Part shown: positions 2 through 47,007 of the stretch, one piece after another
Layout of the letters: the number at the start of each line of letters is the position of its first letter
Position numbering within the stretch: the stretch's first letter is position 1
Virus record (IMG/VR): IMGVR_UViG_3300044782_000021
Coordinates: 1 to 64,000 of that record
DNA length: 64,000 bases
Direction: 5' to 3' (one strand)
From: a virus
Translations under genes and position numbers: made by a program
Notes under the pieces: generated by a model
What the model was told of the DNA's origin: nothing
What the model saw: the letters and a program-made list of their open reading frames with translations, nothing else
Database searches by the model: none

Positions 2-250
2 ACCGCCGTCGATCGCGCCGGTGAACGCGATCAGTGGCCCCTTATCGAAGAACTCGCGGGCGCGCGTCGGGCCGACGAGGTCCTCGACGAATGGCATCTG
101 ATCGTCACCGGATCACGGGTCCAGCAGACCCGCAAGGAAATCGCCAAGCGCATGGGCATGAACCCTTCGACCTTGAGCCGTGCCATCTCCCGCGCCCGTG
201 CCCGAGGTGACCGCCGCGCTGTGCACCACTGGCAAAGACTTGACACGTGA
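2..250 (+). CDS. 5'-truncated CDS; C-terminal helix-turn-helix-like DNA-binding region
   Basis: Frame open from window edge to TGA 248-250 with high GC3. Tail ...QQTRKEIAKRMGMNPSTLSRAISRARARG... resembles an HTH. Absent from ORF track only because no start codon lies in the window. Confidence 0.5.
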   Translation, partial: TAVDRAGERDQWPLIEELAGARRADEVLDEWHLIVTGSRVQQTRKEIAKRMGMNPSTLSRAISRARARGDRRAVHHWQRLDT

Positions 251-268
251 CGTGTCGCCTGGTTGGCT
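240..268 (+). promoter_or_regulatory. sigma-A-type promoter, conserved phage promoter family
   Basis: -35 TTGACA 240-245; 17-nt spacer with palindrome GACACGT-G-ACGTGTC; -10 TTGGCT 263-268. Confidence 0.6.
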
Positions 269-1936: not shown

Positions 1937-2158
1937 ATGAGGATGGATGAAGTACTTCTCACAGTCACCATTGTCGATGTGGCTCAGGCGGCCCGGGATG
2001 TGTTCGGGACGGCGGCACCCAGCCTGTGTCCGTATGGACCAGAAGAGCACGACTACCGGTTTCAGATCGTGGACGACAACGGTCGGTGCACGTTCGGTAG
2101 GGGCTGGACCGCCGACATGGTGATAGCCAGTTGGAAAGCCAACGGACGACAGGCTTGA
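1937..2158 (+). CDS. hypothetical protein
   Basis: 73 aa ORF; stop lies inside the -35 of the next promoter. Confidence 0.5.
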   Translation: MRMDEVLLTVTIVDVAQAARDVFGTAAPSLCPYGPEEHDYRFQIVDDNGRCTFGRGWTADMVIASWKANGRQA

Positions 2159-2183
2159 CACCTTAGGTGACACGTGGGAGAGT
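2155..2183 (+). promoter_or_regulatory. sigma-A-type promoter, conserved phage promoter family
   Basis: -35 TTGACA 2155-2160; spacer CCTTAGGTGACACGTGG; -10 GAGAGT 2178-2183. Confidence 0.55.
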
Positions 2184-6279: not shown

Positions 6280-6280
6280 C

Positions 6281-6309
6281 TTGACACGTTAGGTGTCACG
6301 CGATAGGGT
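6281..6309 (+). promoter_or_regulatory. sigma-A-type promoter, conserved phage promoter family
   Basis: -35 TTGACA 6281-6286; spacer inverted repeat TGACAC-N5-GTGTCA; -10 TAGGGT 6304-6309. Confidence 0.65.
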
Positions 6310-6338
6310 GGGGGCTCCACTACGAGAAAGGCCCCGAC

Positions 6339-6800
6339 ATGCGTAGCTACCAGCCCGGTGACACCGTCAACATCAGCGGCACCATCATCATGCTTGGCGT
6401 CCGACGCCATGTCACCGGCCTCCGGTGGACGTGGACGACCGAGGGCATCGACCTCGCGAGCGCTGACTTCGCCACCGCTCAGCGGGCGATCGATGACGCG
6501 GCCCAGATCCTTCAGGCGCCGAAGAACAAGGAACTGAACCGAATGAACGAGACCCCCGCCAAGGTGTACATGCAGATCCACCGCACCGAGGTGACGCCGA
6601 GCCCCGGCTTCGACCTTCCCATCCCAGGTCGATGGGTCTACGACCGGGCCACGCAGCTCGTCACCGACCCGGATGGCGGACGCTGGACTTTCACCCAGCA
6701 CACCGTTCAGTTTCTTGGTGAGGATATTGGCTGGCAGTCCGTCGGCGCCGCAACGCCCGTAGAAATCGTGCGGGATCAGAGCAAGGACCTGAACCGATGA
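6339..6800 (+). CDS. hypothetical protein
   Basis: 153 aa; GAGAAAGG RBS; first gene after promoter 6281. Confidence 0.65.
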   Translation: MRSYQPGDTVNISGTIIMLGVRRHVTGLRWTWTTEGIDLASADFATAQRAIDDAAQILQAPKNKELNRMNETPAKVYMQIHRTEVTPSPGFDLPIPGRWVYDRATQLVTDPDGGRWTFTQHTVQFLGEDIGWQSVGAATPVEIVRDQSKDLNR

Positions 6801-7321
6801 AGCGCGCAGATCTCAAGCCCGGCCTGGCCGTCTACTACGTCGGCGGCTCGTACGATTGGGACAACTTCAGAGAAAACATCGACGATGCCCGCTGGACCGT
6901 GGCCGATGACAAGCGGTACACCAGGTCGCAGACTTGGGGTCGCGACGCCATCGAGTCCGCTACCGGCACCCTGGTGAAGATCTCCCGGCCCCGCGACCTT
7001 GCCGGGGGTGCTCCTGGTGGCACCTACGAGCGATACGTCAGCCTTGGCAAACTCCGGGGCCTGTATGACGAGATCGCACCGCAGCGCCGCGAGGCCAAAG
7101 CCAAGCATGACGCTGCGGTACGCGAGCGCGATGACCTCCGTAAAGCTCATCGTGACCGGCGCCGCGCGCTGATGTGCATATCGACCGATGCCGGTTTCCC
7201 GGCGTACATGAGCAACGACCCCAAGTTCGTCAAAATCGATGTGGAGGTGTTCGCACGGCTGCTCGACGCCGCCGGCCTCACCGTCCCCCTCGGTCCTCCG
7301 TCTGCACCCGAGAAAGGCTGA
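6797..7321 (+). CDS. hypothetical protein
   Basis: 174 aa; ATGA overlap with upstream gene. Confidence 0.65.
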   Translation: MKRADLKPGLAVYYVGGSYDWDNFRENIDDARWTVADDKRYTRSQTWGRDAIESATGTLVKISRPRDLAGGAPGGTYERYVSLGKLRGLYDEIAPQRREAKAKHDAAVRERDDLRKAHRDRRRALMCISTDAGFPAYMSNDPKFVKIDVEVFARLLDAAGLTVPLGPPSAPEKG

Positions 7322-7326
7322 CCCCC

Positions 7327-7905
7327 GTGCCCACGCCCACCACCGCCACGGACGACTACGCCGACCTGCCTGAGTGGATTCGGCCCAGCGCCAAGCTGGC
7401 CCGACTCGATCACAACCGGGTCACCTTCGTGACCGTCACCAAGATCACGCGCACGCAGATCATCACTGAGTACAAGGATGAGACCTACGGCTCCGTGTAC
7501 CGCTTCGACCGCGTCGGCGTTGAGCCGGGCTGGTACGAGAAGAAGGAAAACCCGAACGCGCCGCTGACCTACCGCCAGCGCGGCGACCACTCGGTGAAGC
7601 TGGTCCGTCGGGATGAGCCCCTCGTCATTGAAATCGTGCGCGACCAGCGGATTCGATCGGCGGTCCTCACGGCGCTCGGCGTCGCCGAGCGCAGCAGGAA
7701 GCGGTGGGGCAACCCGAACGCCGATGAGGAGTCGCTTGACCTGAACGTGCGAGCGCTGATCGTGCTCGACGAGGTCGAGACCGCGATCACCGAGGCGAAG
7801 CGGCTGATCATGCGGGCGATGGTCGACCTGCCCACGCCGGCCAACTCCATCATCGGCGCGGCTGACCATCAGGATTTGCGAGCGATGGAAAGTGAGGGGG
7901 AATGA
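7327..7905 (+). CDS. hypothetical protein (C-terminal GAADHQ motif)
   Basis: 192 aa from GTG 7327 (GAGAAAGG RBS) in frame of ORF 7174..7905. Confidence 0.6.
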   Translation: MPTPTTATDDYADLPEWIRPSAKLARLDHNRVTFVTVTKITRTQIITEYKDETYGSVYRFDRVGVEPGWYEKKENPNAPLTYRQRGDHSVKLVRRDEPLVIEIVRDQRIRSAVLTALGVAERSRKRWGNPNADEESLDLNVRALIVLDEVETAITEAKRLIMRAMVDLPTPANSIIGAADHQDLRAMESEGE

Positions 7906-35116: not shown

Positions 35117-36714
35117 TGGCCAGGTCGCGGCGGATCTTCCGGGAGGCTCAGCATCCGCGCGACGACCGGGGGCGCTTCGCACGCAAGGGTGGCGGCAAGT
35201 GGGTGGCCCGCGTTGTCCGGACCGCTGACGCTGGCTTCCTCGACACCGGACAGGCGCGGTCAGGGCTGCGTCAGGGCGGGCCGTCCGGACTGATCAATCT
35301 CGGACAGGTCCGGGAGGAGAACAAGCCGTGGGTGAAGCGTGCCGCCGACCGGATCGGCGAGCAGCGCGGCACCCTGAAGACCGCGCGTGACGTCTCGATG
35401 AGCAAAGATCAAATCCTGGTGGACGGAGTTTGGCGGACCGTCACCATGACCGGCTGGGGTGGCGGCAAGGATAAGCTTGGCTATCGCGATGACGATGACG
35501 TGTCGCGCGAGATCAGACTTGAGGCTGACGAGAAGATCGCCACCCGCCCGACAAAGATCGACTTCAGTGATCCGCTTCGTCCTGGTCAGGCCGCACGGAT
35601 GGCCGCCTGGCGGGCGAATGCCGCCGTACCGCCGCCGTTCCGCATGAGCACGGTCGAACTACCGTCGCCACGCGAGCTACGAGTTGCGGCGCTCGCCGTC
35701 GAGCGCGAGATGGCCGTTGCCACGTTGAAAGCCGCCCAGAGGTTCGCCAAAGCGCGGGCACGCCGCAAGTACCCGAACAGCGAGGGGTATGGCGCGTACA
35801 CCCGAGACTCCTACGTCGAAAACGAGACGCACCGGGAACAATGGGCTGTCAATTCGGTCGACAACCAGTTCCGATACCTCGCCGACAACGACAGCGACAC
35901 AGGAGACTGGAACGTGCGGCCCACCGGCATGGTCGCGGAGCTGATAGCGCCGCTCGATCCCGCGCGCCCCCTCGCGGTGTACGGCGACCTGATGAACATC
36001 GAGGGCGATGACCAGGCCACCTTCCGCCACCTCCGTGACCTTGAGCTGTTGCCCGCCGAGGCGCACGCCATCGTGGCCGCCGGCATGGCCCGGACGCGGG
36101 CCGAGAAAGGCAGTCCGTCCACGGGGGTCTGGCTGGGTTCCCGGTCGATCGCGGAACTGGACCACTCCGACGACCTGGCCAAAGAGCGCCCGCGAGGCTG
36201 GGACGAAGACAAGACGTGGAGCAATGTCGACGGGGTGTATCGGGGCACCACGCAGACGATGATCGCTGGAACCTCCGAAGTGTCCGCGAGCCGGGGCGAG
36301 CATGGTCAAGCAGCGTTGCATGAGTTCGGTCATGCGATCGACGACGAGATCGGTCAACGTCGGGCGTTGGCCGGGAAGCGCGGGGAGAGCGAGTCTCACG
36401 CCGGCCCTGAGTCGTTCTCCCGCGAGTGGGGCGACCTGTGGTCGCGTGTGGTCGCGGCGGCGCCTGATATGAGTCCGTACTTCAAGCAGGGCTTTCCGGC
36501 AGGCCAGCAAGAGTTGTGGGCCGAGGCGTTCGGCGAATGGTCGCGTGCTCGGGCCAGGGCTCGCAAGCGGGGCGAGCACCCTGACCTGATCTCGGTCGTT
36601 GGGCAGAACGCGTTCACACGGGAGTTCCGGATTCCGAAGGAAAACCGGGCACTGGCCATAGAGATGGACACCTATTTTCTTGGTGTCATGGAGCGATTCG
36701 GGGTGAAGCTGTGA
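35113..36714 (+). CDS. putative capsid-cargo protein with lethal-factor-like HExxH zinc metalloprotease domain
   Basis: 533 aa; N-terminal SRRIFREAQHPRDDRGRFARKGG leader; HEFGHAIDD at 36319-36345 and WAEAFGEW ~60 aa downstream mirror the anthrax LF motifs HEFGHAVDD ... EFFAEAF. Confidence 0.7.
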   Translation: MMARSRRIFREAQHPRDDRGRFARKGGGKWVARVVRTADAGFLDTGQARSGLRQGGPSGLINLGQVREENKPWVKRAADRIGEQRGTLKTARDVSMSKDQILVDGVWRTVTMTGWGGGKDKLGYRDDDDVSREIRLEADEKIATRPTKIDFSDPLRPGQAARMAAWRANAAVPPPFRMSTVELPSPRELRVAALAVEREMAVATLKAAQRFAKARARRKYPNSEGYGAYTRDSYVENETHREQWAVNSVDNQFRYLADNDSDTGDWNVRPTGMVAELIAPLDPARPLAVYGDLMNIEGDDQATFRHLRDLELLPAEAHAIVAAGMARTRAEKGSPSTGVWLGSRSIAELDHSDDLAKERPRGWDEDKTWSNVDGVYRGTTQTMIAGTSEVSASRGEHGQAALHEFGHAIDDEIGQRRALAGKRGESESHAGPESFSREWGDLWSRVVAAAPDMSPYFKQGFPAGQQELWAEAFGEWSRARARARKRGEHPDLISVVGQNAFTREFRIPKENRALAIEMDTYFLGVMERFGVKL

Positions 36715-36944: not shown

Positions 36945-37774
36945 GTCGCGTCTGGGACGAGTCGAAGGTCGACCGGGACAAGTGGGGTCGGTTCGCCGAC
37001 AGCGAGAGCCGCATGGGCGTCGAGACGTGGATGCAGCGCGTCAGCGACGAGATGCGCCGCACCATCGATCGCGAGGACGCCGGCCACCAGGCGGGCCGGT
37101 GGCGCGTCCTGACCCCGGAACAGCAGCGGGTCACCTTGGCAAAGCAGATGTTTGACGGCGCGCTCGACGTGCAGCCTGACTTTGACAAGGCCGAGCTGCG
37201 CCGGCTGTGCCTGGAGGAAGCCGACAATCAGGTGTCGCCCGGTCAGCGCAACGACATCACGCTGACCAATGGCAAGGCCACGATCCGATCCAGCGATCCT
37301 CGGGTCAGGCTCGCCGAGCTGGAGGCGGTCGCCGCGCAGGTCGACGACCTGCACACCCGATTCCCCGCGCAGGGGCGGATGTCGATCGGGGTCTATACCG
37401 ACGATTTTCCGATGAGCCACGAGCACGCCGACGGGCAGACGATCCACGGCGAGGCGTTCATCCAGATCAAAGGCCGGGTCTGGGAGTCGGAGAAGACGGC
37501 TGCGGACGGGTTCATGCCCGCCCAGGACGATCACAGCCGCTGGGAATATGTGCTTGCGCACGAGTGGGGCCACGCGATCGACCACACGAGCCCGATGGAT
37601 CAGCTCATGGCGCAGTTCTCCGAGGGTTCCGTTGGGCTGTCGGCGTACGGGCAGGCGAGCCCGCGTGAGGCGTACGCGGAGGCTTTCGCGGAGTGGTACC
37701 TGACGAAGGGCCACACCACCAACAGCGCGGCGGTCTACTACGCCGAGAAGTTCGATTGGGGTGAGCCCTGGTGA
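36941..37774 (+). CDS. putative capsid-cargo protein with lethal-factor-like HExxH zinc metalloprotease domain
   Basis: 277 aa from GTG 36941 (GTGA overlap) in frame of ORF 36836..37774; N-terminal WDESKVDRDKWGRF leader; HEWGHAIDH 37559-37585 and YAEAFAEWY. Confidence 0.7.
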   Translation: MSRVWDESKVDRDKWGRFADSESRMGVETWMQRVSDEMRRTIDREDAGHQAGRWRVLTPEQQRVTLAKQMFDGALDVQPDFDKAELRRLCLEEADNQVSPGQRNDITLTNGKATIRSSDPRVRLAELEAVAAQVDDLHTRFPAQGRMSIGVYTDDFPMSHEHADGQTIHGEAFIQIKGRVWESEKTAADGFMPAQDDHSRWEYVLAHEWGHAIDHTSPMDQLMAQFSEGSVGLSAYGQASPREAYAEAFAEWYLTKGHTTNSAAVYYAEKFDWGEPW

Positions 37775-37962
37775 GCATCATCATCGCGGAGACGCCGGAC
37801 GGCGCGCGGGAGACCGACATGGTCGACCTGGGCGACGCGGCGCTGTCCGGATTCGTGCGGATGGGCAACGCCGACGCGATCCGGGAGTTCTGGCGGCGCA
37901 AGCTCGCACCACGGCGCCGTGCCAGCCGCCGCATCTTTGACACCTCACGTGACAAGCGGTAG
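37771..37962 (+). CDS. hypothetical small protein ending in ...SRRIFDTSRDKR
   Basis: 63 aa; GTGA overlap; stop inside promoter 37937. Confidence 0.4.
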   Translation: MSIIIAETPDGARETDMVDLGDAALSGFVRMGNADAIREFWRRKLAPRRRASRRIFDTSRDKR

Positions 37963-37965
37963 CGT
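37937..37965 (+). promoter_or_regulatory. sigma-A-type promoter, conserved family, leaderless configuration, inside the structural module
   Basis: -35 TTGACA 37937-37942; spacer CCTCACGTGACAAGCGG; -10 TAGCGT 37960-37965; ATG 37973 is 8 nt downstream. Confidence 0.6.
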
Positions 37966-37972
37966 GGTGACC

Positions 37973-38428
37973 ATGACCTCACGCCGTGCCCGCGTCGCCG
38001 TCCGTCCGCCCTGCGCACCCACCGGCCTACCGGCGCCCGCGCCGAGCACCGACGCCGGCCGGTGCGCGTGCGGTGACCTCCTGCGCCACAAGCCCAATGG
38101 GGCCGGAGAATGGACGACCGTCTCCGTGGTCACTGGACTGGCACATGTCGATCAGGCGCCGCAGGCCCTGCGCGACGATCCCGCGAAATGGTGGGCCGAC
38201 CTCGCCGAGCATGACATCCGGTCGTATTCCGTCCTGAAAGCGGCTGTCGACCTCGGGTACTGGTCGTGGTATCACATCCATCGCACGGAGGCCGGTACCG
38301 CGCCGGCTCACACCGGTACGACGCCGTTCTGCTGCGGCTCGCCGATGTGGGCCGCACCGGACGGCTGGGTGTGCCGGGTCGCCGGCTACACCACGATCCG
38401 GCGACCGTACGCGGAGGTAGGCGCATGA
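37973..38428 (+). CDS. hypothetical Cys-containing protein (leaderless)
   Basis: 151 aa from ATG 37973 in frame of ORF 37919..38428. Confidence 0.55.
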   Translation: MTSRRARVAVRPPCAPTGLPAPAPSTDAGRCACGDLLRHKPNGAGEWTTVSVVTGLAHVDQAPQALRDDPAKWWADLAEHDIRSYSVLKAAVDLGYWSWYHIHRTEAGTAPAHTGTTPFCCGSPMWAAPDGWVCRVAGYTTIRRPYAEVGA

Positions 38429-39252
38429 GCGGGTTTTGGCACGAAGAGGATCATCACCGGGACGATATGGGCCGGTTCACGGAGTCATCTATGGGGGCGT
38501 GGGCGGCGAAGATCGCTCAGCGGATGGCTGATTTCCGCAACAGCGCCCGCAACGACGCCGAACGGATAGGACTGGCGTTCTACAAGGGATTCCGGCCGCC
38601 AGGGTTTGAGGCTGCCAAGAAGCGGCATAAGGAGCTTGATCAGGCATATGTTGACCGGAAACTAACTGATCAAGAGCTGCTCGAACTGAAGACGCTCGAT
38701 GATGCGTTTGACGAATTGGTCAAGCTCATTGGTCACAAGAACTCTCTTAGGTTCGACGCCTATGGAGAGACCCGACCGCATGACATCGAGCCCGCCGCGT
38801 CCCGAATGGGTTACCGGCGAGTTGGCAACCACCCGGAAGGCGTGGGAGGTCCAGAAGGACCCGACGACAACTACTTAAGTCGTAGCTCCCATCCGCTGGC
38901 CGGCGGCCTGTGGATCGATCCGGACCGGCCGGGCACCCGCCATGCTCCGGCGTATCGCAACGATGCCGGACACATTGTGTCGGACCTTCGGGCGGAACCA
39001 CATCGGACCGCTACGCATAAGCGGAATCGTCAGTCGCGGCGTCGTGAGGACTGGACGCATACCCCCGATGACATGGAGCGGCTGCACGAAAGCGAGGGCG
39101 GCAAGATCGGCTATCGCGAAGAGGTCACTTCGGAGTTTCTCGCCTGGGTGAAACGAGCTAAGGCCCGCACTCGCGCCGAGGCACCGCCGCAAACGTGGAT
39201 CTTGCAGGTCAACGATAGATTCGAGCAACGAAGGGATCGGCGCCGTGGCTAA
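38425..39252 (+). CDS. putative capsid-cargo protein (HRDD..GRF leader)
   Basis: 275 aa from ATG 38425 (ATGA overlap) in frame of ORF 38266..39252; N-terminal FWHEEDHHRDDMGRF. Confidence 0.6.
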   Translation: MSGFWHEEDHHRDDMGRFTESSMGAWAAKIAQRMADFRNSARNDAERIGLAFYKGFRPPGFEAAKKRHKELDQAYVDRKLTDQELLELKTLDDAFDELVKLIGHKNSLRFDAYGETRPHDIEPAASRMGYRRVGNHPEGVGGPEGPDDNYLSRSSHPLAGGLWIDPDRPGTRHAPAYRNDAGHIVSDLRAEPHRTATHKRNRQSRRREDWTHTPDDMERLHESEGGKIGYREEVTSEFLAWVKRAKARTRAEAPPQTWILQVNDRFEQRRDRRRG

Positions 39253-42200
39253 GAGGTCGAGGCGGATCTTCCGCGAAAAGGATCACCCGCGCGATGATCG
39301 TGGCCGGTTCGCCGAGAAGGCCGGCGGTCGGTGGCTGGGTCGCGTTGTGCGCCAGCATGAGGCCGGCTTCGGTGACACCAGCGCGGCACAGCCGGGCATG
39401 CGCTCCGGCCGGCTGGGCGGCGGCGTGCTCGACCTGGGCGCGATCAGCCGGGGCAACGCCGGGTTCAACCGGCCGACCGCGCAGCGGCGGGACACGCTGA
39501 GCGCGTCCGGGGTGGCCGGGTTCATGGCGCAGCCGACCAAGAAGGCGCTGACCGTGCCGAAGGTCACGGAGGCGGACATTCGCGAACGCCTCAGGGAGGC
39601 TGAGGACGCTGTAGCCATGCTCGATGGCGACAGCAACACTCGGGTATCTCGCGCCGCGCATGCGGAGCTGATCGAGGCCCGCCAGATGATGAAGGACGCC
39701 GGGTTTGAGCTGGCGCCCGCGCGGCGGCGGTTCGGCCGGGCTATCCCGGAGTCCGAAGCCAAGGCGCCGGAGTCGACCGGCTCGTTCCTGGAGCGGCAGG
39801 CCGCGAAGGTCGCGGCGGCGCGGGCCGCCGGCAAGGCGACCACACCAAAGAAGGCGGTCGCCGAGCGCCAGGGGCCGGACCTGCGCAACCTGATGCGGGA
39901 CAAAGGCATTGATCCGCCGCCGCTCCTGGACGCGAACCAGGAGCTTGACCGGGCCAACAACCGGCTGGCGCGCGGCGACGATCCGAACCTGGTGGCCCGG
40001 AAGCTCCGGGACGCGGCCGACAGCATTGAGCTGCGGGCCGACCAGGAAGGTGGCCCCGACGAAGACAGTGTCGAGCGTAACCAGGCGAAGCAGAGCGCCC
40101 GCTCACTGCGCCGGGCGGCCGGCACGCTTGACGGTGGTGAGGACACGAAGCTACCGGCGTTCATGGAGAAAGCCAACGCCGACATCGCGAAGAAGCTCGG
40201 TCAGACTCAGGTTGACACGTCCCGTGACACGGGGAAGACTGGAGGGGTGACTACCGATGCGGACAAGATGCTTGCCCTCGATCTTGCGGATATGCGCGAA
40301 CAGGCGCCCCACGCTGCCGATCAGCTTGCCAAGGCTCGCGAGGTACTGAAGAGGCAGAAAGCGCGAACCGTGGCGGCGTACGGAGCTGACCGCGACCGGT
40401 GGCCCTCAAACGCGGATCAGTCGATCAGGGTGGAGGAGAAGCGCGTAGCGGATGCCGAAGAGGCGGATCGCAGCGCTCGCGAATACCTCGCCGAACTGGA
40501 GGCTAAGGCCGGTCAGCGCGACAGCGGCGGCACGGTCATTCCCGAGCCAGTCAAGGCGATCCCCTCCACATGGCGGGTCGCACTCTCCAAGATTGACGCG
40601 TCCGAGGTCGGTAAGGGCCGAGGTCTGTCCCCGGGAGAGATCTCCGTACCGGTACGACAGAAGCTCTTCGCCGCCGGCCTCTACGAGGTCCGCAAGGACG
40701 GTACCGGCTACCTCGGACCCCGCGAATACCTGCACCTCACCCCCGCCGGCCACGACGCCCTTAAGGCTGCCGATGGCGAGAAGTACGACCGGCGGCGGGT
40801 CGACGTCGCCGCGAAGACGGAACGGGACGCGGCCAGGAAGGCGGCCGACACCGAGAAGGCCGCCGTCCAGCGGGCCGCCAGCGAGGAGCGTGGCCGGAAG
40901 GTCGAAGCGCAGGCCATCGCCGAGGGTCTTGACCCACTCGCCGCCCGCCTCGGTGGCATCGAGGCCGCCCGCAAGCAGCGTGACGACAAGGCCGCGCAGG
41001 CGGCGGCCGAGCAGGAGATCGTCCTTGGTCGTGGCATTCCCACGTATGTGCCTGGCCAGGGAGCCCGTAACGGCGAGAGCTACGGCGCTGCCCTTCAGCG
41101 AATCATCAAGTTGGGCAAGGAACTTCAGAAGGACGACTTCCCGATCGAGGAGGCCCGACCGGTTGTTTCCGTCCACGCGCGCAAATATGTGGACTCGATG
41201 CAGGCTGTTGACGCCGCGTACAACGACGTTTTCGCGGCTGAGCATCGCCGCGATTACCTGGCCACTATCGCCGGGATTGAGGGCGACTCCGCGTACGGGG
41301 TCAGGGTCAAGGCGGCTGACGACGCCGTTGACGCCGCCCGGGCCACGCTCGGCGAGCGGCTTGATGCCGCCGACGCGGCCCGGGTGGCGTTCGGCGACGC
41401 GGTCATCGGCTTGTACGCCGGCAAGGGCCGGAAGAAGTCGCTCGCCGCTCTTAAACTGCCGATCGTCATCGAGGGCACCAACCACAGGACCAGTCTCGCC
41501 GACCGGATCGCCGGCAAGGTGCCGGCGGACAGCGTCGGCCCTGAGGCGGACGCGGCGCGGCGCGCGGTGCTCGCCCGGCTGCGCGCCGAGGACCAGATCA
41601 AGATCGAGAAGCATGCGGCAGCGTTGCTCCGGGCGAAGGCGTATGGCGTCGAGCGGGACATCCCGCACCTTTCCGGCGACCCGGAGGCCCGCAGTGAGGC
41701 CCGCGCCAAGATGGGTGCACTGAACCGGCAGGGCGGCGAGGCCGAGGGGCGCGCTCGCGACCTGAGCGCCGGCCTGCGCAACATGACGATGACCGAAGAG
41801 AAGGCGCTCGCCGACCTGGCGGCCGTCAAGCCGACGTTCACGCCGCTGCGCGACCCGGACCGCAACAGCAAGGAGGGCCTCGCCCTGTCCCTGCGCTCCG
41901 TGCCGGGCAACAGCCTCGCCGCGACCGCCGCCGACCTGGAGAGCGGCGACATCGGCTACATGCAGGCCGCCGACAAGGTCAGCCAGTTCGGGCGGTCGCT
42001 CGGCGGCCGGACTATGTCCGAGCTGAACCGCACCGCCCTCGCCGAGCTTGAGAGCCGGCTCCGCGCGGCTGGCACCGCCGACCTCGCCCCGAAGGTGCCC
42101 ACGGTGGCTGCCGGGTCCAGCGAGGCCGCCTACGCCGGCATGAAGCGGTCTAGCCTCCTCGCGATCGCCCGGATGAAGGGAATCAACCCACGCGGCAAGG

Positions 42201-44545
42201 ACAACGGCGCCCTTGCGGGGGAGATTGCCGCCCACGACGCGGCACAAGGTGGCGTCAAGGAGGTTCCGGCCGTGGCCCCGGATTCCAAGCGGATCACCCG
42301 CGCGGAGTTCGATGTCCTGCCGGTCGAGCAGCGTGATAGGATCGTCGCCGAGCTACGCAAGATCATCGACACCAACGATCAGGTGTCGAAGACCATCCCG
42401 AGCAACCGCACTAGCATGGGGACCACGATCCGGACTACGGTCTCCGCGCCGTGGGTCGAGCAGGCCAAGGAGAAGCTGCGCGAGCTGACGTACACCGCAC
42501 CGCCGCCGGTCGACTACTCCGTGGGCGGCAAGGCGAGCCGGCTCAGCGCGGCGAGCAACGCCGGAGAGGCCCGGAGCATTCTCAGCGGGTCGACGATGGC
42601 GGATCTTGACGACATCGGTCGGTTGAGCGGGCTCGGGCGGGTGATGACGTCCTGGAAGCGTGACAAGGCCGTTGACTACCTGGTGAACCGGGCGGTCGCC
42701 GGGGACCGGATGCCGACCGACTACTCCACCGACAGCATTGCGGATGCGCTCCGGGGTGCCAGCGCCGAGCAGGCTCTTGCGGTGCTCGACGCGATCGAAA
42801 CTGACCGAGGTATCAGTAAGGCTGAGCTTCAGGCGGTTGCGACGAGCCTCGGTGTCGGAAAGCTGACCGGGGACAAGCGGGCGACGATGCACGCCTTGGC
42901 GGGGAAGGCGGGTGGTGCTGGCCCAAAAGCACCTGAGGCCCGAACCGACACGCCTCGCGACATCGGTGGCATGGTGGAGCTGCTGTCCTTCGGCATAGAC
43001 CGACCAAAGGACGGCTACGACGCGCACGGCGACACGCTCCGGCCTGGCGACATCGCGACTATCGGCTCCGACCGGCACAACCGCACCGACGAACAGGTTG
43101 AGGTGCTCGACGTCGGGATCGGTAAGCAGGGTGGTTCGGCGCTCGCCACAGTGCGATACGCCAACGGCGACCGGGAACAGATCCTCATGGGCAATCTGGT
43201 GCGAACCAAGCCGGTCGGGGTCCGCTACCTGGAGTCGCTCCGCGTCGAGCTTGCCGGCAACGAGCGGGCCGGCATGACGTTGCGTGGAAAGCCCTCCACA
43301 CTCGATGCGCTGCGCGAGGCGACAGGCAAGGGCATGAGCCACTACGCGGCTGCGGTGCTCAGGCGCGAGGCGGGCAGGCACAAGGGTCAGCCGCTCGCCG
43401 ATCGGCTCACGCAGGCGGCGGGCGATATCGAGAAGCTGATCTTCAGTACGAAAGATCCCGAGATCTTGCGGCGCGCGACGGGTGCCGACCCAAAAGCACC
43501 GGTTGACACCACAAGTGACAAGAGCCAGACTGGTGACATGACCCCCGTCGCAAAGACCATCAGTGTTCCTGTCGCGCTTTCCTCTCGTACCCGCAACTAC
43601 AACATTGAGGGACCGAGCAGGGCACAAGCGGTCAAGATGGCTACACTGCGTCAGCGTCACCTGACGGATGCGGAGACCGCTCGTCAGCGAGGTGACGATG
43701 ACGCCGCATTCTCGAAGGATGAGCAGGCGTTTGATCTTGAGACTGATCTGCGTCGGTTTGGGTTCAATGTCGATACGGGTAGGCCGGACCCCAAGGCCGC
43801 GAAGGATCAGCGGGAGAAGGATCGTTCGCGTCGCACGTTCGCGGATAGTCTTCGGGCCGGTGGTGGTGCCGGCCTAAAAGCACCTGAGGCCCGAACCGAC
43901 ACACGTAATCAGGTGGGTGCACGACCTCTCTCCGGCTTGCCTGCCGACCTGAAGGTCATCGGCGTCGGCGGCGTCGCCGAGGACAAGCGGGTCGCTGACA
44001 AGCCGGCACCGCCGACCGCCGAGGAGAAGGCAGCCGCCAAGACCGCCAAGGTTGAGGCTGAGCGTGCCGCCGCCAAGGTCCGCGACGAGGAGTGGACAAA
44101 GCGGCGGGTCGCTGAGATCAAGCGCCGGCTCGACGACGGCCAGACCGAAACCCTCGGCGGCGTCACCGACGCGGGGGTGCTCGCGCTGGCCCGGGAAGTC
44201 GGCGTGCCGATTCCGGCGCGCAAGGCGGACCGGGGCGGCCTGAAGGCGGCCATCATCGACAAGATCCGTAGCGGCGAGTCCGGCGGGCAGGACAGGTCGG
44301 CGGGGTCGGCCCATTGGACCGGCCTCGCCAACAAAGTCATGAACCTCGGCAGCCGCGAAGAAGCCGCAGCCGAGATGCGCGACCTGACCATTCCTGAGCT
44401 GCGCATGCTGGCCAACGCCATGCGTGAGGGCGGCGTCGCCATCGTGGGCGGCACCAGTAAGGCCGCTATCATCCGGGCGCTCGTCGAATACGCGGTTGGC
44501 CGGCGCCTCGATGCCGACGCGATCAGTCGTGTCGGCCTTCGGTAG
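39245..44545 (+). CDS. giant (1766 aa) coiled-coil protein with HPRD..GRF leader and multiple HeH (SAP/Rho-N-like) motifs
   Basis: The N-terminal 60 aa are paralogous to the 35113 gene (SRRIFREKDHPRDDRGRFAEKAGG). Long A/E/K/R-rich regions. HeH-like segments include RSSLLAIARMKGINPRGKDNGALAGEIAAH, GVLALAREVGVPIPARKADRGGLKAAIIDKI and TIPELRMLANAMREGGVAIVGGTSKAAIIRAL. Contains internal KAPEARTDT repeats. Confidence 0.8.
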   Translation: MAKRSRRIFREKDHPRDDRGRFAEKAGGRWLGRVVRQHEAGFGDTSAAQPGMRSGRLGGGVLDLGAISRGNAGFNRPTAQRRDTLSASGVAGFMAQPTKKALTVPKVTEADIRERLREAEDAVAMLDGDSNTRVSRAAHAELIEARQMMKDAGFELAPARRRFGRAIPESEAKAPESTGSFLERQAAKVAAARAAGKATTPKKAVAERQGPDLRNLMRDKGIDPPPLLDANQELDRANNRLARGDDPNLVARKLRDAADSIELRADQEGGPDEDSVERNQAKQSARSLRRAAGTLDGGEDTKLPAFMEKANADIAKKLGQTQVDTSRDTGKTGGVTTDADKMLALDLADMREQAPHAADQLAKAREVLKRQKARTVAAYGADRDRWPSNADQSIRVEEKRVADAEEADRSAREYLAELEAKAGQRDSGGTVIPEPVKAIPSTWRVALSKIDASEVGKGRGLSPGEISVPVRQKLFAAGLYEVRKDGTGYLGPREYLHLTPAGHDALKAADGEKYDRRRVDVAAKTERDAARKAADTEKAAVQRAASEERGRKVEAQAIAEGLDPLAARLGGIEAARKQRDDKAAQAAAEQEIVLGRGIPTYVPGQGARNGESYGAALQRIIKLGKELQKDDFPIEEARPVVSVHARKYVDSMQAVDAAYNDVFAAEHRRDYLATIAGIEGDSAYGVRVKAADDAVDAARATLGERLDAADAARVAFGDAVIGLYAGKGRKKSLAALKLPIVIEGTNHRTSLADRIAGKVPADSVGPEADAARRAVLARLRAEDQIKIEKHAAALLRAKAYGVERDIPHLSGDPEARSEARAKMGALNRQGGEAEGRARDLSAGLRNMTMTEEKALADLAAVKPTFTPLRDPDRNSKEGLALSLRSVPGNSLAATAADLESGDIGYMQAADKVSQFGRSLGGRTMSELNRTALAELESRLRAAGTADLAPKVPTVAAGSSEAAYAGMKRSSLLAIARMKGINPRGKDNGALAGEIAAHDAAQGGVKEVPAVAPDSKRITRAEFDVLPVEQRDRIVAELRKIIDTNDQVSKTIPSNRTSMGTTIRTTVSAPWVEQAKEKLRELTYTAPPPVDYSVGGKASRLSAASNAGEARSILSGSTMADLDDIGRLSGLGRVMTSWKRDKAVDYLVNRAVAGDRMPTDYSTDSIADALRGASAEQALAVLDAIETDRGISKAELQAVATSLGVGKLTGDKRATMHALAGKAGGAGPKAPEARTDTPRDIGGMVELLSFGIDRPKDGYDAHGDTLRPGDIATIGSDRHNRTDEQVEVLDVGIGKQGGSALATVRYANGDREQILMGNLVRTKPVGVRYLESLRVELAGNERAGMTLRGKPSTLDALREATGKGMSHYAAAVLRREAGRHKGQPLADRLTQAAGDIEKLIFSTKDPEILRRATGADPKAPVDTTSDKSQTGDMTPVAKTISVPVALSSRTRNYNIEGPSRAQAVKMATLRQRHLTDAETARQRGDDDAAFSKDEQAFDLETDLRRFGFNVDTGRPDPKAAKDQREKDRSRRTFADSLRAGGGAGLKAPEARTDTRNQVGARPLSGLPADLKVIGVGGVAEDKRVADKPAPPTAEEKAAAKTAKVEAERAAAKVRDEEWTKRRVAEIKRRLDDGQTETLGGVTDAGVLALAREVGVPIPARKADRGGLKAAIIDKIRSGESGGQDRSAGSAHWTGLANKVMNLGSREEAAAEMRDLTIPELRMLANAMREGGVAIVGGTSKAAIIRALVEYAVGRRLDADAISRVGLR
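40212..40240 (+). promoter_or_regulatory. promoter-family motif inside the giant gene (weak -10)
   Basis: TTGACA 40212-17; spacer CGTCCCGTGACACGGGG; AAGACT 40235-40; in-frame GTG 40247 is 7 nt downstream. Confidence 0.3.
42911..42951 (+). repeat. 41-bp direct repeat, copy 1 (pairs with 43862-43902)
   Basis: GGTGGTGCTGGCCCAAAAGCACCTGAGGCCCGAACCGACAC; 27-bp core identical, 2 mismatches overall; copies 951 bp apart (in frame); encodes GGAG.KAPEARTDT. Confidence 0.85.
43503..43531 (+). promoter_or_regulatory. full promoter-family motif inside the giant gene, leaderless configuration on an in-frame ATG
   Basis: TTGACA 43503-08; spacer CCACAAGTGACAAGAGC; CAGACT 43526-31; in-frame ATG 43538 is 7 nt downstream. 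Confidence 0.45.
43862..43902 (+). repeat. 41-bp direct repeat, copy 2
   Basis: GGTGGTGCCGGCCTAAAAGCACCTGAGGCCCGAACCGACAC. Confidence 0.85.
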
Positions 44546-44550
44546 TCACG

Positions 44551-45504
44551 GTGGATGAAGACGAGCTTGTCGACTATGAGCAGCAGGTTCGCCGCAGCGT
44601 CGCGGCGGACCTGCGCACCATCCTCGACCAGCTCCACGCCACCCTGACCGCCGTCTACGTCGTCACCGCCGGGTCGACCAGACACAAGCTCCCCCCGCAT
44701 GCTCAAGAGACCATCCGCCGGCACCTTCTTGACGCCCTCGACCGCATCCAGGCGGGTACCAGCTACGCGCGCACCCGCGCTACCCTGCGTGGTGCGGCCC
44801 GATCGGCGATCGCTGCCGGTGGCGAGGGTACCGGCCTCGGCGTGCCGATCGGGCCGACCACACCTCTCGACATCCGGGCCGCGCTGACCGCGCTCACCGC
44901 CGGCATGCGCGGCGACCTGCTCACCGCCGGCCGGCTGGCCCGCCATGGGCGCCTGGAGCGCTACGGGGACGTGGTCGGCGTCATCATGGCCGCCAGGAAG
45001 GCGCTCAACCGTGCCGAGCGGACAGCCGCGTGGACGGTGCACCGGGCGCACAACGAAGGGGTGCGCCGCGCCGTCGACAAAGCCTGGTCGCAGGGTGTCG
45101 ACGTGTCGCGGATGTGGCGGTCCGAAAGGTCGGCTTGCGTGCGCTGTGCCGGGTTCAATGGGGCGCTCGCGGCCGTTGGGGACGACTTCCTTCCGGTGGT
45201 CGATGTGGCCGACTTTTCCGGCGGGCACGGGCCGGCGGCCGGGCCGCCGCTGCATCCATGGTGCAAATGCTCCGAAGAGCCTTGGTTTGGGCCAGTTTCG
45301 GATGAAGAGCTGACGCCGCTCGACCTGCCGTACGCGCTGCGACGCGAGGCGCAGCGGGCGATCGCGACCGGGCAGGCGCAGGGCAGTGAGCCGGCGCGGC
45401 TGCGCGCGGCGGGGCGCCTGGTCGGCCTCGATGATCTGCTGATCCCGAAGACGGTGCGCAAGCGCGCGGCCGGCGCGGTCGCGGCGGGAACGTTCGATCG
45501 GTAA
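44551..45504 (+). CDS. MuF-like minor capsid / head morphogenesis protein
   Basis: 317 aa from GTG 44551; RTAAWTVHRAHNEGVRRA ... SACVRCAGFNG ... PPLHPWCKCS matches the Phage_Mu_F pattern (N.G ... C..C ... PP.HPNCRC). Confidence 0.75.
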   Translation: MDEDELVDYEQQVRRSVAADLRTILDQLHATLTAVYVVTAGSTRHKLPPHAQETIRRHLLDALDRIQAGTSYARTRATLRGAARSAIAAGGEGTGLGVPIGPTTPLDIRAALTALTAGMRGDLLTAGRLARHGRLERYGDVVGVIMAARKALNRAERTAAWTVHRAHNEGVRRAVDKAWSQGVDVSRMWRSERSACVRCAGFNGALAAVGDDFLPVVDVADFSGGHGPAAGPPLHPWCKCSEEPWFGPVSDEELTPLDLPYALRREAQRAIATGQAQGSEPARLRAAGRLVGLDDLLIPKTVRKRAAGAVAAGTFDR

Positions 45505-45507
45505 CGC

Positions 45508-45536
45508 TTGACACCTCAGGTGACAAGTATTAGGCT
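45508..45536 (+). promoter_or_regulatory. sigma-A-type promoter, conserved family
   Basis: -35 TTGACA 45508-13; spacer CCTCAGGTGACAAGTAT; -10 TAGGCT 45531-36. Confidence 0.65.
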
Positions 45537-45575
45537 CGACCTGCAAACAGTTGAGGACGAGCCAGGGGAGCACCG

Positions 45576-46115
45576 ATGACCACCACCGTCGAAGCGCCGG
45601 TCACCACCGTCGAGCCGAAGACCTGGACGATCGCCTACCGCAGGCGCACCGCCAACCGCTTTCAGCGGGTCACCAACTGGTCCGGCACCTGGGCTGAGGC
45701 GCGGGAGATGGCTGGTGCGTTCGGCGAGCTGTACCCCGATCTTCAGGTGTGGTACACCATGACCGCCGCTCATGAGCAGGCCGAGACCATCCGCCTCGCC
45801 GCCAAGGTCGCCAGCGGTGAATATGATCAGGAATTCGCTGACCGCTACCTCGAAGACCACCGGAACATCATGGTCGACTCCGGCAAGCGCATCGCCATCC
45901 GCGAGACCGGCAACCTTCCCGCCGAACTGCTCGACGCCGACGCCATGAAGGTCGCGGGCGAGATGCTCACCCCCACCGTGCCCGCGTTTTCGACCTGGAT
46001 CGCCTGTCTTGACTGGGCGGGCGACGTGCGCACCAATCACCCGGCCATCTTCGCCGACATGGTCCGGGACTCCCGCACCGCCGACGAGCGCTACTCCGCG
46101 AGCTGTACCCGATGA
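45576..46115 (+). CDS. hypothetical protein
   Basis: 179 aa; GGGGAG RBS; first gene after promoter 45508. Confidence 0.65.
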   Translation: MTTTVEAPVTTVEPKTWTIAYRRRTANRFQRVTNWSGTWAEAREMAGAFGELYPDLQVWYTMTAAHEQAETIRLAAKVASGEYDQEFADRYLEDHRNIMVDSGKRIAIRETGNLPAELLDADAMKVAGEMLTPTVPAFSTWIACLDWAGDVRTNHPAIFADMVRDSRTADERYSASCTR

Positions 46116-46255
46116 ACATCTACGACATGATCCGGGCGATGCCCGCCCGGATCATCGACTTCTCGACCACTCACCCGGCCGTGCTGGTTTTCGTCGCCGC
46201 CGGGCTCGTGTTCGCCGCCGCTGCCGCCCTGGTCCACCACCACGGAAGGAAATGA
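46112..46255 (+). CDS. small single-TM membrane protein
   Basis: 47 aa; ATGA overlap; PAVLVFVAAGLVFAAAAALV. Confidence 0.45.
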   Translation: MNIYDMIRAMPARIIDFSTTHPAVLVFVAAGLVFAAAAALVHHHGRK

Positions 46256-46257
46256 TC

Positions 46258-46596
46258 ATGTTCCCCTCTGCCGGTTCCATCATCTACCGCAACGAGGCGG
46301 GCGAACCCATCGGCTGGGACGCGCCCGGCGACCCGCACAACGACCCGCACAACGACCCGTATGACCCTGACGACTACCTGGCTCAGGACGACGAGGGAGA
46401 CGAGGAAGATGACGAGGACGGCACTGCCGCCGCCGTTGACGCTGGTCACACCGGACATCCGCCGACCTGGCCCAACTACATCGACAACCGCGAATGCTGG
46501 TACGTGCTGACCAGCCGGACCGAAACCCCGAACTGGCGCGACCGGCTGAGTTGCGGCAACCCGTTGCCGTGCTCGGACCACCCGGAAGTGAGGTAG
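46258..46596 (+). CDS. hypothetical acidic protein
   Basis: 112 aa from ATG 46258 (GGAAGGA RBS; alternative 46252) in frame of ORF 46009..46596. Confidence 0.55.
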   Translation: MFPSAGSIIYRNEAGEPIGWDAPGDPHNDPHNDPYDPDDYLAQDDEGDEEDDEDGTAAAVDAGHTGHPPTWPNYIDNRECWYVLTSRTETPNWRDRLSCGNPLPCSDHPEVR

Positions 46597-46601
46597 TGAC
46601 C

Positions 46602-46865
46602 ATGGAGCAATACACAATGGTCGTTGTCGGCTCCACCAAGTTCTACGGTGACGGCTGCTACGAAATGGCGGTCGAGACCGACAAAACCGCCGTCGAGTAC
46701 GCGGACGAATGGCTCACCAACAACTGGGACGACGAACCTCCGAACGTGGTCATTGAGATGTACGCCAACGTCGGGGGCGTCGAGCGGATCGTTTACTCGA
46801 CGAACAAGCAGCAAGCCGCCCTCGAAGACTTCCCCGACGGTCCCGACAACATCGGCGTCCGATAG
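46602..46865 (+). CDS. hypothetical protein
   Basis: 87 aa from ATG 46602 (GGAAGTGAGG RBS) in frame of ORF 46494..46865. Confidence 0.6.
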   Translation: MEQYTMVVVGSTKFYGDGCYEMAVETDKTAVEYADEWLTNNWDDEPPNVVIEMYANVGGVERIVYSTNKQQAALEDFPDGPDNIGVR

Positions 46866-46896
46866 GCTTACCCCACCCAGCAGGGTCATCGGGAAC

Positions 46897-46917
46897 GGCC
46901 CGCCCACAAGGCGGGCC
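46897..46917 (+). terminator. intrinsic terminator
   Basis: GGCCCGCC-CACAA-GGCGGGCC followed by TTCTTG. Confidence 0.7.
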
Positions 46918-47007
46918 TTCTTGCTGCCCAGCCCCCGGCAGTACGATCACCCCTAAGACGTGACGTCGCACAGCCCGTGACGGGCGCGCAAAGGGGAGGA
47001 AACGGTC

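Follow-up and report, generated by a model that had tools for sequence, protein, structure and literature searches.

A promoter-like site followed by an in-frame ATG lies on the + strand inside an open reading frame (ORF) encoding 1766 amino acids (39245..44545) in the viral genome examined herein. Does this site direct the synthesis of a second, shorter protein, or is it a remnant of fusion, a protein-binding site, a peptide feature, or a coincidence of the coding sequence? We addressed this question in a window of 64,000 nucleotides (positions 1 to 64,000 of IMG/VR record IMGVR_UViG_3300044782_000021).

The 43503 site and its promoter-like family

The site consists of the -35 hexamer TTGACA (43503-43508), the 17-nt spacer CCACAAGTGACAAGAGC (43509-43525) containing a family-specific GTGACA box (43515-43520), the -10 hexamer CAGACT (43526-43531), a discriminator of 6 nt that is rich in G and ends in C at -1 (GGTGAC, 43532-43537), and ATG at 43538-43540, all on the + strand. 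The -35 hexamer is read as xTT GAC Axx (V-D-T) with the rare codon GTT, and the -10 hexamer as CAG ACT, in which ACT is also rare (7.8% of Thr codons). ATG 43538 is in frame with the giant gene (43538 - 39245 = 4293 = 3 x 1431), corresponds to residue M1432, and opens an ORF beginning MTPVAK (43538..44545) that shares the stop codon of the giant protein, as in a nested gene. The initial annotation had placed both hexamers and the ATG, 7 nt past the -10 element, at these positions, and every coordinate was confirmed on the sequence. The nested product, previously given as approximately 336 aa, is 335 aa, and the label "HeH" for its C-terminal helices was not confirmed.

The 43503 site matches a family of eight intergenic promoter-like sites. 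Intergenic members lie on the + strand at 240..268, 2155..2183, 6281..6309, 19557..19594, 28400..28428, 37937..37975, 45508..45536, and 63950..63978; the member at 45508, just past the gene that follows the giant gene, is the next promoter downstream. The family is characterized by TTGACA(C) with a GTG(A/T)CA box 6 nt downstream, and by TAGGCT or TAGCGT as the -10 element in most members, 17 nt past the -35 element. The 43503 site reads TTGACAC CACAA GTGACA. Its previously claimed agreement with the family consensus holds for TTGACA and the GTGACA box, but not for position -12, at which C replaces T, or for the N5 segment, in which CACAA deviates from the family's STCAS at three of five positions. 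The site retains both A at -11 and T at -7. T at -12 is likewise missing from two intergenic members (GAGAGT at 2155 and CAGGAT at 24711) and from the CAAGAT of two distant relatives, L003 and L004; therefore, this change appears to be tolerated. The presence of C at 43526 is explained by the reading phase, in which TAG is a stop codon. In Streptomyces coelicolor, promoters carry a -10 element of TANNNT and a -35 element of NTGACC, and 21% of mRNAs are leaderless (PMC4895711). Compared with the housekeeping-sigma consensus (PMC4895711), the 43503 site has a perfect -35 element and a 17-bp spacer, with a -10 element of cANNNT rather than TANNNT.

ATG 43538 is the seventh nucleotide past the -10 element and coincides with the predicted +1. 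The GG-rich 6-mer that abuts it is too close to act as a Shine-Dalgarno sequence, an arrangement that agrees with the definition of a leaderless start, in which ATG or GTG falls on the predicted +1 and leaves no space for such a sequence (PMC4633059). Two intergenic members had been cited as having the same geometry. At 19557, ATG 19592 is indeed 7 nt past the -10 element and opens a 34-aa hydrophobic ORF. At 37937, which is the member most similar to the 43503 site (TTGACA-N17-TAGCGT-GGTGACC-ATG), ATG 37973 is 8 nt past it, not 7. A 63-aa ORF (37771..37962) runs through the 37937 promoter in the same phase (..FDTSRDKR*) and ends on the TAG of its -10 element; we refer to this arrangement as the split state. 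Similarly, the gene upstream of the 2155 site ends on the TGA within TTGACA.

The promoter-like arrangement at 43503 is real and beyond chance. The pattern TTGWCA-N6-GTGAC with at most one mismatch has 21 matches in the window versus 1.4 expected. A position weight matrix (PWM) made from the eight intergenic sites only gave 20.6 bits for the 43503 site and 29.8 bits for a second in-gene site at 40212, versus 7.5 bits for the next unrelated match on the + strand, and when the codons of the giant gene were shuffled 3000 times, the score of the 43503 site was never attained. This site is the weakest family member (leave-one-out scores of intergenic members were 30-41 bits), the one point in favor of a fortuitous resemblance in G+C-rich coding sequence, and a generic E. 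coli-type promoter scan did not flag it. Nevertheless, the arrangement recurs in relatives, as described below, and we regard the probability of a fortuitous origin as negligible; the codon shuffles and the comparison of in-gene copies effectively rule it out.

In-gene copies in the giant gene and its relatives

The giant gene, itself a mosaic of modules, is part of the head module and is located between the genes for the portal (33125) and an ATLF-like peptidase (35113-36714) and those for the scaffold (47008) and capsid (48291). Its coding frame is supported by a GC3 of 0.8-0.88 and by homologues (P0002-P0007), and no Pfam or PHROG family was found above the threshold in the 1766-aa protein. 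The 43503 site has the same orientation as the genes, but is positioned 4.3 kb inside the ORF rather than between genes. The only other family member in such a position is that at 40212..40249 (+ strand; TTGACA-N17-AAGACT-GGAGGG-GTG with a GTGACA box in the spacer), which the initial annotation overlooked. Its in-frame GTG (40247) would begin a nested ORF of 1432 aa (40247..44545).

Homologues of the giant gene, which are also mosaic, were found in 10 other metagenomic loci. Each has one or two copies of the motif in the same codon phase, and the -10 element is always NANNNT. ATG or GTG is positioned exactly 7 nt past the -10 element in the in-gene copies, with one exception in an eleventh locus (L220), in which GTG has been lost. 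The 14 in-gene copies compiled from 11 loci are all in phase 1 and comprise TTGACA, a 17-nt spacer, NANNNT, 6 nt, and in-frame ATG or GTG. L001 and L002 keep the motif and its start codon at the homologous junction, and L005-L010 do so at analogous ones, although the flanking coding sequence is unalignable; L006-L010 were found with a pattern that required the start codon. A metagenome scan without this requirement yielded eight copies within giant genes, seven of which had ATG or GTG at the expected position, whereas only 1 of 84 low-GC chance matches did. Among 12 copies of the same flavor as that in the window, mean identity was 0.74 in an island of approximately 41 nt and 0.33 and 0.35 in the 81-nt flanks. 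L003 and L004 use a different flavor of intergenic promoter (..CTGTTTC..CAAGAT-AGAGGC-ATG), and their giant genes hold in-frame copies of their own flavor, again with ATG or GTG 7 nt past the -10 element.

These relatives show that the conserved motif is a DNA element rather than a protein feature. The peptide that it encodes, (V/L)DT(S/T)xDxx(K/Q)(T/S)GG(M/V)T, recurs at module boundaries and may have been kept as a flexible linker or as a cleavage site for a zincin-like peptidase between polyprotein modules; the ATLF-like zincin peptidase gene is just upstream, and processing by zincin peptidases has been proposed for polyvalent proteins of phages (PMC5512222). However, the same DNA consensus is present at eight untranslated intergenic sites. 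The residues encoded by the -10 element vary among in-gene copies (K/Q/D/H/N followed by T/S/A/N; the pairs are KT, QT, QS, DT, QA, HT, NN, QN, and KA), while its second base, A, and last base, T, are invariant. Rare T-ending codons occur where a promoter requires T (GTT 12.7%, AGT 10%, CGT 11%, and ACT 7.8%), and the in-gene flavor shifts together with the intergenic flavor of the lineage. We consider a purely protein-level explanation to be very improbable, but the stretch may have a dual use as a DNA element and a peptide.

The 43503 site also contains an imperfect dyad (TTGACAC-N5-GTGACAA), a putative regulator site. The motif may thus be an operator or roadblock only, in which the dyad TTGACAC-N5-GTGWCAA is bound by a repressor or other dimeric protein that pauses or stops transcription or organizes the genome without initiation. 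In favor of this, the box in the spacer is specific to the family and has partial palindromic symmetry, the PWM scan also gives scores to partners on the reverse strand, and every copy is on the transcribed strand, with copies spread across early and late regions. In these respects, the family resembles the stoperators of Cluster A mycobacteriophages, which are asymmetric 13-bp repressor sites: both are short, conserved, and present in many copies, with one orientation relative to transcription and some copies in transcribed regions. Stoperators lack -35/-10 geometry and a start codon, which are both present here. An operator would require neither NANNNT at 17 nt nor in-frame ATG or GTG 7 nt further on, yet both are conserved. 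Moreover, phase 0 would be equally permitted for an operator, whereas all copies occupy phase 1, in which the start codon falls in frame, and the L003/L004 flavor has an identical geometry without the dyad. No repressor family or integrase gene was found in the 30 predicted proteins scanned (of approximately 97 genes, with most small early proteins outside the scan). We judge an exclusive operator role to be improbable.

A more serious alternative is that the motif is a non-functional promoter remnant from the fusion of cassettes, and possibly a homology patch for recombination, which appears conserved because the junctions are young or continually renewed. The surroundings of the 43503 site provide several arguments for this. 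The sequence 43503..43876, containing the promoter and a module of approximately 85 aa homologous to stand-alone genes, has 59.4% GC and a GC3 of 0.62 versus 67-70% and 0.8-0.88 elsewhere in the giant gene, and this low-GC island suggests recent arrival. Directly upstream of the motif is the junction repeat GGTGCCGACCCAAAAGCACC (43481..43500, + strand, family D6), which encodes G-A-D-P-K-A-P, is present in three copies in the giant gene (42914, 43481, and 43865), and also occurs in L001 and L002, directly upstream of their second motif. At 42911..42975 (+ strand, family D4), the repeat is followed by a decayed promoter copy (42926; CCGACAC..GCGACA, -10 deleted, ATG retained) at the position homologous to the live second motif of L002. 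The first 41 nt of this stretch recur with 95% identity at 43862..43902 (+ strand), and these direct repeats, 951 nt apart, bracket an inserted block that the second repeat closes. Homology breakpoints between giant genes coincide with motif sites and junction repeats. In L008 and L036, the same downstream module is fused without an upstream motif; therefore, nested expression is not obligatory. The decayed copy at 42926 and the loss of GTG in L220 similarly indicate that such sites are not always maintained.

Other observations are difficult to reconcile with a scar. The motif and start codon are intact beside a module that has diverged to approximately 40% amino acid identity (176-337 in the window versus 298-433 in L007/L008). 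The initial annotation had named beforehand, as a result that would speak against its reading, the loss of the motif in relatives that keep the protein; the opposite was observed, with the motif and start codon kept between unalignable DNA flanks. What has been kept is precisely what is critical to a promoter, namely, TTGACA, a spacer of 17 nt, the A and T at -11 and -7, and RTG 7 nt past the -10 element, while the remaining positions drift. The in-gene copy of L003/L004 equals the intergenic copy in quality. We consider a scar to be rather unlikely overall; nevertheless, part of the in-gene conservation could result from repeated recombination at promoter copies and not from selection on each copy.

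Proposed mechanism and origin

The initial interpretation of an internal promoter with a leaderless nested product is supported by these comparisons and by homologues of the nested product: many free-standing proteins of 74-86 aa match its residues 10-85, and their initial Met aligns at M1432 or within 7 residues of it. The low-GC island and the coincidence of homology breaks with motif sites likewise fit this reading. On balance, we favor, with moderate confidence, the view that the 43503 site is a live promoter of the housekeeping-sigma type, co-regulated with its family and built into the frame of the giant gene, from which a leaderless mRNA would be transcribed and translated into a nested protein of 335 aa. 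The giant gene thus probably encodes a shorter protein made from an internal leaderless transcript in addition to the full-length protein. Host RNA polymerase with the principal sigma factor would bind TTGACA (43503-08) and cAGAcT (43526-31) across the 17-bp spacer and start at A43538. Since the transcript would open with AUG, we propose that it is translated as a leaderless mRNA into 335 aa co-terminal with the 1766-aa protein; it may also run on into the downstream head genes. The copy at 40212 may act in a similar manner from GTG 40247 to give 1432 aa. The GTGACA box in the spacer, together with the dyad, is a putative site for a phage regulator that governs the whole family.

Regarding its origin, we propose that a cassette comprising a promoter and a leaderless small gene was fused in frame to an upstream gene. 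In-frame fusion would be easy in these phages because a gene often ends within the promoter that follows it. Read in this phase, a -10 element of TAGNNT would supply a TAG stop codon exactly 12 nt (4 codons) ahead of the start codon; therefore, a change from T to C or A at -12 would join the two ORFs and still leave both critical -10 bases in place. A broader proposal, which we advance tentatively and consider somewhat unlikely, is that the promoter serves these actinobacteriophages as a junction that is both portable and translatable, with the base at -12 (T versus C/A) switching between split and fused states, and that giant genes are assembled, shuffled, and dismantled via such junctions with their modules still expressed singly. 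In the split state, a strong promoter would separate two genes; in the fused state, a single gene would contain the promoter and also specify a nested product. Read in this one phase, the consensus promoter would encode a harmless linker peptide.

If the internal promoters are functional, one 5.3-kb "gene" would give rise to no fewer than three proteins with a common C terminus (1766, 1432, and 335 aa), which could differ in amount, timing, and possibly fate, for example, packaged in the capsid or free in the cell. Standard annotation would overlook the nested proteins. The -10 hexamer would double as a stop codon removable by a single base change, and the in-frame capture of promoter-plus-gene cassettes at promoter-derived junctions would be a route for building and remodeling giant phage proteins. 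The signature of the same phase, NANNNT, and a start 7 nt past the -10 element may be used to seek hidden nested genes in other high-GC phage genomes.

Comparison with known systems

Leaderless genes are found in Streptomyces and Mycobacterium (PMC4895711, PMC4633059). A close mechanistic parallel is Shigella virF, in which a gene-internal promoter, a leaderless mRNA, and the shorter in-frame protein VirF21 were shown experimentally (PMC5101355). In both cases, one ORF yields at least two proteins (as predicted here), the internal promoter starts a leaderless transcript at or near an in-frame ATG, and the short form is devoid of the N-terminal part. The present case differs in being predicted from sequence. 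Furthermore, its internal promoter is a copy of a genome-wide family, recurs at module junctions of mosaic giant genes, and appears to have come with the module that it precedes. In Cluster O mycobacteriophages, SigA-like leaderless promoters have been predicted, including PL6 within a coding region, as here (PMC4351075). However, these promoters belong to distinct genes downstream of them and have not been described as nested starts in frame, and the 17-bp palindromes of Cluster O are a separate repeat, whereas the conserved box described herein is inside the promoter spacer.

Polyvalent proteins of phages and conjugative elements, for which module separation by proteolysis has been proposed, provide another comparison (Iyer et al. 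2017; PMC5512222); the word "promoter" is absent throughout that paper. The 1766-aa protein shares one distinguishing feature of this group, namely, great size and many modules combined with a gene placed among those of late virion proteins, close to portal/MuF. Similar to polyvalent proteins, it is a giant mosaic encoded among late head genes by the portal gene and a zincin-like (ATLF) peptidase gene, and its modules also occur as solo genes. It differs in that no typical domain (zincin peptidase, ART, MTase, ParB, etc.) was detected in it; the peptidase is encoded by a separate neighboring gene.

The predicted combination of a long head-module ORF and a shorter in-frame product with a common C terminus is also reminiscent of the nested head-assembly genes UL26/UL26.5 of herpesviruses and C/Nu3 of phage lambda. 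The UL26.5 promoter lies inside UL26, and Nu3 is translated from an internal start on the mRNA that it shares with C. Neither pair is related to the present proteins in sequence or fold, and a scaffold or protease role is not part of the present proposal. Morons are cassettes of promoter, gene, and terminator placed between phage genes. The cassette at 43503 resembles them as a small foreign gene with atypical base composition and its own promoter; in contrast to morons, it lacks a terminator, has been inserted into a gene in the same reading frame, and contributes to the translated host protein as well. The phage is known from metagenomes only, and the nearest isolated relatives of its portal are found in Streptomyces and Microbacterium phages.

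Promoter-like sites within the giant gene

The motif reported at 43503 in the initial annotation is present as claimed: TTGACA (43503-08), a 17-nt spacer (CCACAAGTGACAAGAGC) with GTGACA (43515-20), CAGACT (43526-31), GGTGAC, and an ATG at 43538. This ATG shares the reading frame of the 1766-codon ORF 39245..44545 (the giant gene), as was also proposed, and the nested product therefore has 335 aa rather than approximately 336 aa. The match to the promoter family consensus is not complete; at 43503, the -10 element has C where the family has T. The two intergenic promoters previously used for comparison gave different results: the geometry at 19557 (ATG 19592) was as described, whereas at promoter 37937 the ATG is located 8 nt, not 7 nt, past the -10 element. 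A second in-gene copy, absent from the earlier listing, was found at 40212-40249 (TTGACA-N17-AAGACT-GGAGGG-GTG); its GTG at 40247 is in frame and would open a nested ORF of 1432 aa. Both copies in the giant gene have the same codon phase (xTT GAC ACx). The absence of T at -12 from in-gene copies has a simple reason, because TAG in this phase is a stop codon.

The core pattern at one or fewer mismatches occurs 21 times in the window against 1.4 expected. Eight complete intergenic copies (240, 2155, 6281, 19557, 28400, 37937, 45508, and 63950; all on the + strand) each lie directly after, or overlap, the end of the preceding gene. Scored with a weight matrix derived from these eight copies alone, 40212 reached 29.8 bits and 43503, the weakest family member, 20.6 bits; no other site in the 128 kb scanned exceeded 7.5 bits, reverse-strand halves of true sites aside. 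None of 3000 codon shuffles of the giant gene reached the score of 43503. Given these shuffles and the excess of pattern matches, we regard the probability of a chance resemblance as negligible. A generic scan for E. coli-type promoters flagged no family member because -10 elements of the TAGGCT type fail the TATAAT rule, and a terminator scan found none on the + strand inside the giant gene.

Genes and promoters are so tightly packed in this genome that they overlap. A 63-aa ORF (37771..37962) extends across promoter 37937, sharing its phase with the in-gene copies (..RRIFDTSRDKR*), and stops at the TAG of the -10 element; it is an unfused state within the window. Similarly, gene 1943..2158 ends within promoter 2155, where the TGA of TTGACA is its stop codon.

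The best-supported reading of the sequence, which we consider to be fairly probable, is that 43503 is a functional internal promoter that gives rise to a leaderless mRNA and a nested 335-aa protein. The mRNA would begin at A43538, and the sister site at 40212 would give a 1432-aa protein from GTG 40247. If published leaderless behavior holds in the host, translation would follow wherever transcription starts. Internal initiation driven by a Shine-Dalgarno sequence was rejected because in every copy only 0-1 nt separates the GGAGG-like run from the start codon. The putative transcript from 43538 shows no unusual structure over its initial 100 nt (z = -1.1), and Rfam identified no RNA family in 37000-47000. 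The proposed mechanism fits what is generally known of leaderless genes in actinobacteria and matches that of Shigella VirF21, a short in-frame form made from a leaderless mRNA whose promoter lies within the gene (PMC5101355). We infer that the spacer box/dyad is probably the binding site of a putative phage regulator common to the whole family; that the in-gene copies serve as operators only appears improbable to us.

Several minor features accompany the intergenic promoters. The ORF that starts at the leaderless ATG of promoter 19557 is hydrophobic and only 34 aa long (19592-19696; MTPQQRETLSVMIIGGFILGAIIVHILGSLLVLR), possibly a small membrane peptide. Approximately 800 nt past the strong promoter at 28400 (28400-29217) have no confident ORF in the gene model; in the related metagenomic locus L001, several tRNA-like T-arm sequences occur in the region that follows the equivalent promoter (586-1565). 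Within the window, ARAGORN detected a single tRNA (tRNA-Arg ACG, 5812-5884).

Conservation at the DNA level

Searches with the giant protein gave six homologues. They are mosaics with some modules in common and others not, and DNA was obtained for five of the six, the contig of homologue P0003 being the exception. In-gene copies were present in L001 (two), L002 (two), and L005 (one). Scanning IMG/VR for the DNA pattern, together with a metagenome scan, added loci L006-L010, L160, L209, L220, and L224, the last four from the metagenome scan only; in all of them the motif lies within open frames of hundreds to 1300 codons. Local BLAST of L006-L010, which were found with a start codon demanded, placed the frames of these five loci in the same mosaic family.

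All 14 tabulated in-gene copies, from 11 loci, share one phase, a 17-nt spacer, a -10 element of the form NANNNT and never TANNNT, a distance of 6 nt, and an in-frame ATG or GTG. Alignments revealed an island of approximately 41 nt, from TTGACAC to RTGA, amid DNA that is otherwise unalignable; among the 12 copies with the flavor of the window, mean identity was 0.74 in the island, 0.33 upstream, and 0.35 downstream. The 40212 copy has a nearly unchanged base sequence in L001, L002, and L007/L008. In the metagenome scan, which did not demand a start codon, ATG or GTG occupied the start position in seven of eight copies inside giant frames (L220 has GCA) against 1 of 84 low-GC chance matches. 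A broad IMG/VR DNA pattern without downstream constraints was unfit for statistics, the matches listed being mostly low-GC chance. One site (L007 5383/L036) first appeared to be an in-ORF copy in another phase and without a start codon; since by GC3 the DNA before it has no clear coding frame, this site is most likely an intergenic promoter of the usual kind.

In all 14 copies the start codon is followed by A (RTGA), the first codons are rich in Thr, Ser, or Asn (MT.TT, VTTTT), and C is nearly always found at -1 in ATG-type copies. These features could reflect a preference in leaderless initiation or an ancestral ATGA stop-start overlap.

Intergenic copies carry the family consensus untranslated. 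In the translated copies, the -10 element encodes varying residues (KT, QT, QS, DT, QA, HT, NN, QN, and KA), while A at -11 and T at -7 are unchanged in all 14 copies. The codons that give the T positions are rare in the genome (GTT 12.7%, AGT 10%, CGT 11%, and ACT 7.8%; T-ending codons overall, 12%). These comparisons indicate that the in-gene motif is kept at the DNA level, not the protein level. A peptide-level role, such as a protease site, has in its favor that a zincin gene is a neighbor of the giant gene and that zincin peptidases have been proposed to process phage polyvalent proteins (PMC5512222); as the sole cause of conservation we consider it very improbable, while dual use as peptide and promoter is possible.

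The two most distant relatives, L003 and L004, have no GTGWCA box. Their intergenic promoters are of another flavor, also leaderless (TTGACA..CTGTTTC..CAAGAT-AGAGGC-ATG), and their giant genes hold in-gene copies of that flavor (L003 2030, ..AAAGCT-GGAGGG-GTG; L004 5704, ..CAAGCT-GGGGGC-ATG) that are in frame, with the same phase and start-codon distance as those of the window flavor. Therefore, the in-gene element tracks the promoter of each lineage. Other sites in these loci (L003 5116 and 7386; L004 9774 and 11553) carry the non-palindromic flavor TTGACA..CTGTTTC..[CT]AAG[ACG]T, with a leaderless ATG 7 nt past the -10 element at some, which shows that spacer motifs are lineage-specific within this phage group.

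In Cluster O mycobacteriophages, SigA-like leaderless promoters have been predicted, one inside a coding region (PMC4351075). The literature searched contained no case in which giant mosaic phage genes regularly carry members of a promoter family in frame where modules join, with -12 changed so that the frame stays open and with the in-gene sites co-varying with the promoter of the lineage. The polyvalent-protein survey nowhere mentions promoters (PMC5512222).

A probably captured module and junction repeats

An exhaustive profile search assigned residues ~10-85 of the nested ORF (..NYNIEGPSRAQAVKMA..FDLETDLRRFGFNVDTG) to a family of free-standing 74-86-aa proteins. The initiator Met of these homologues aligns at M1432, the Met of the nested ORF, or seven or fewer residues away, and one homologue is encoded among consecutive small genes that follow an ordinary promoter. 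Segment 43503-43876 has a GC content of 59.4% and GC3 of 0.62 (67-70% and 0.8-0.88 in the rest of the giant gene). It is bracketed by 20-nt junction copies (GGTGCyGrCCyAAAAGCACC), of which the giant gene has three (42914, 43481, and 43865), and lies inside a block between 41-nt direct repeats (42911-42951 and 43862-43902; 95% identical, 951 nt apart). Both repeats encode the 'GxGPKAPEARTDT' repeats. Based on the homologue starts and the bracketed low-GC segment, it appears that a small gene was captured in frame and that the 43503 site and its ATG were originally the promoter and start codon of that gene.

Some of these features would also fit a junction scar or recombination joint without activity. 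A decayed copy at 42926, the position of the second live motif of L002, has CCGACAC, GCGACA, and a deleted -10 element; the module after ATG 43538 (NYNIEGP module) is fused without the motif in L008 and L036; and the low score of 43503 counts against the promoter reading. Since homology breakpoints coincide with the motifs, part of the conservation could stem from recombination at promoter copies. We consider an inactive scar or joint to be rather unlikely and favor the internal promoter.

The label 'HeH' for the C-terminal motifs was not confirmed because the nested protein has no significant family or fold match: Pfam and PHROGs gave only a sub-threshold DUF1771, a PDB sequence search gave no match, and Foldseek of its AlphaFold2 model (pLDDT 72, all-helical with disordered linkers) against the PDB gave nothing significant.

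Genome context and host

The window is from a phage with 65% G+C and all genes on one strand. Terminase (31253), portal (33125), a protein whose zincin domain resembles anthrax lethal factor (35113), the giant gene, a 317-aa gene, scaffold (47008), and capsid (48291) follow in order. This order rules out a tape-measure identity for the giant gene and makes it a head-region gene. The zincin protein, encoded between portal and giant gene (35113-36714), has 533 aa and a Pfam ATLF match of 28.9 bits, and in the P0003 contig a gene with an ADP-ribosyltransferase toxin domain comes shortly after the giant gene, which suggests a capsid-delivered effector region.

There is no isolated or prophage relative in the sets searched: the region matched none of 50,697 GenBank phage records by Megablast or tblastn, and neither a protein-guided IMG/VR scan nor a search of GTDB genomes using the conserved N-terminus gave a match. 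The host is probably an actinobacterium because the portal is 25-30% identical to portals of Streptomyces and Microbacterium phages. In S. coelicolor, the -35 and -10 elements are NTGACC and TANNNT, and one fifth of mRNAs are leaderless (PMC4895711).

In L001, a 1257-aa gene with a faint LAGLIDADG match (4007-7780) is located two genes upstream of the giant gene, directly before the portal, and may be a terminase with an intein; the window terminase has 569 aa and no intein.
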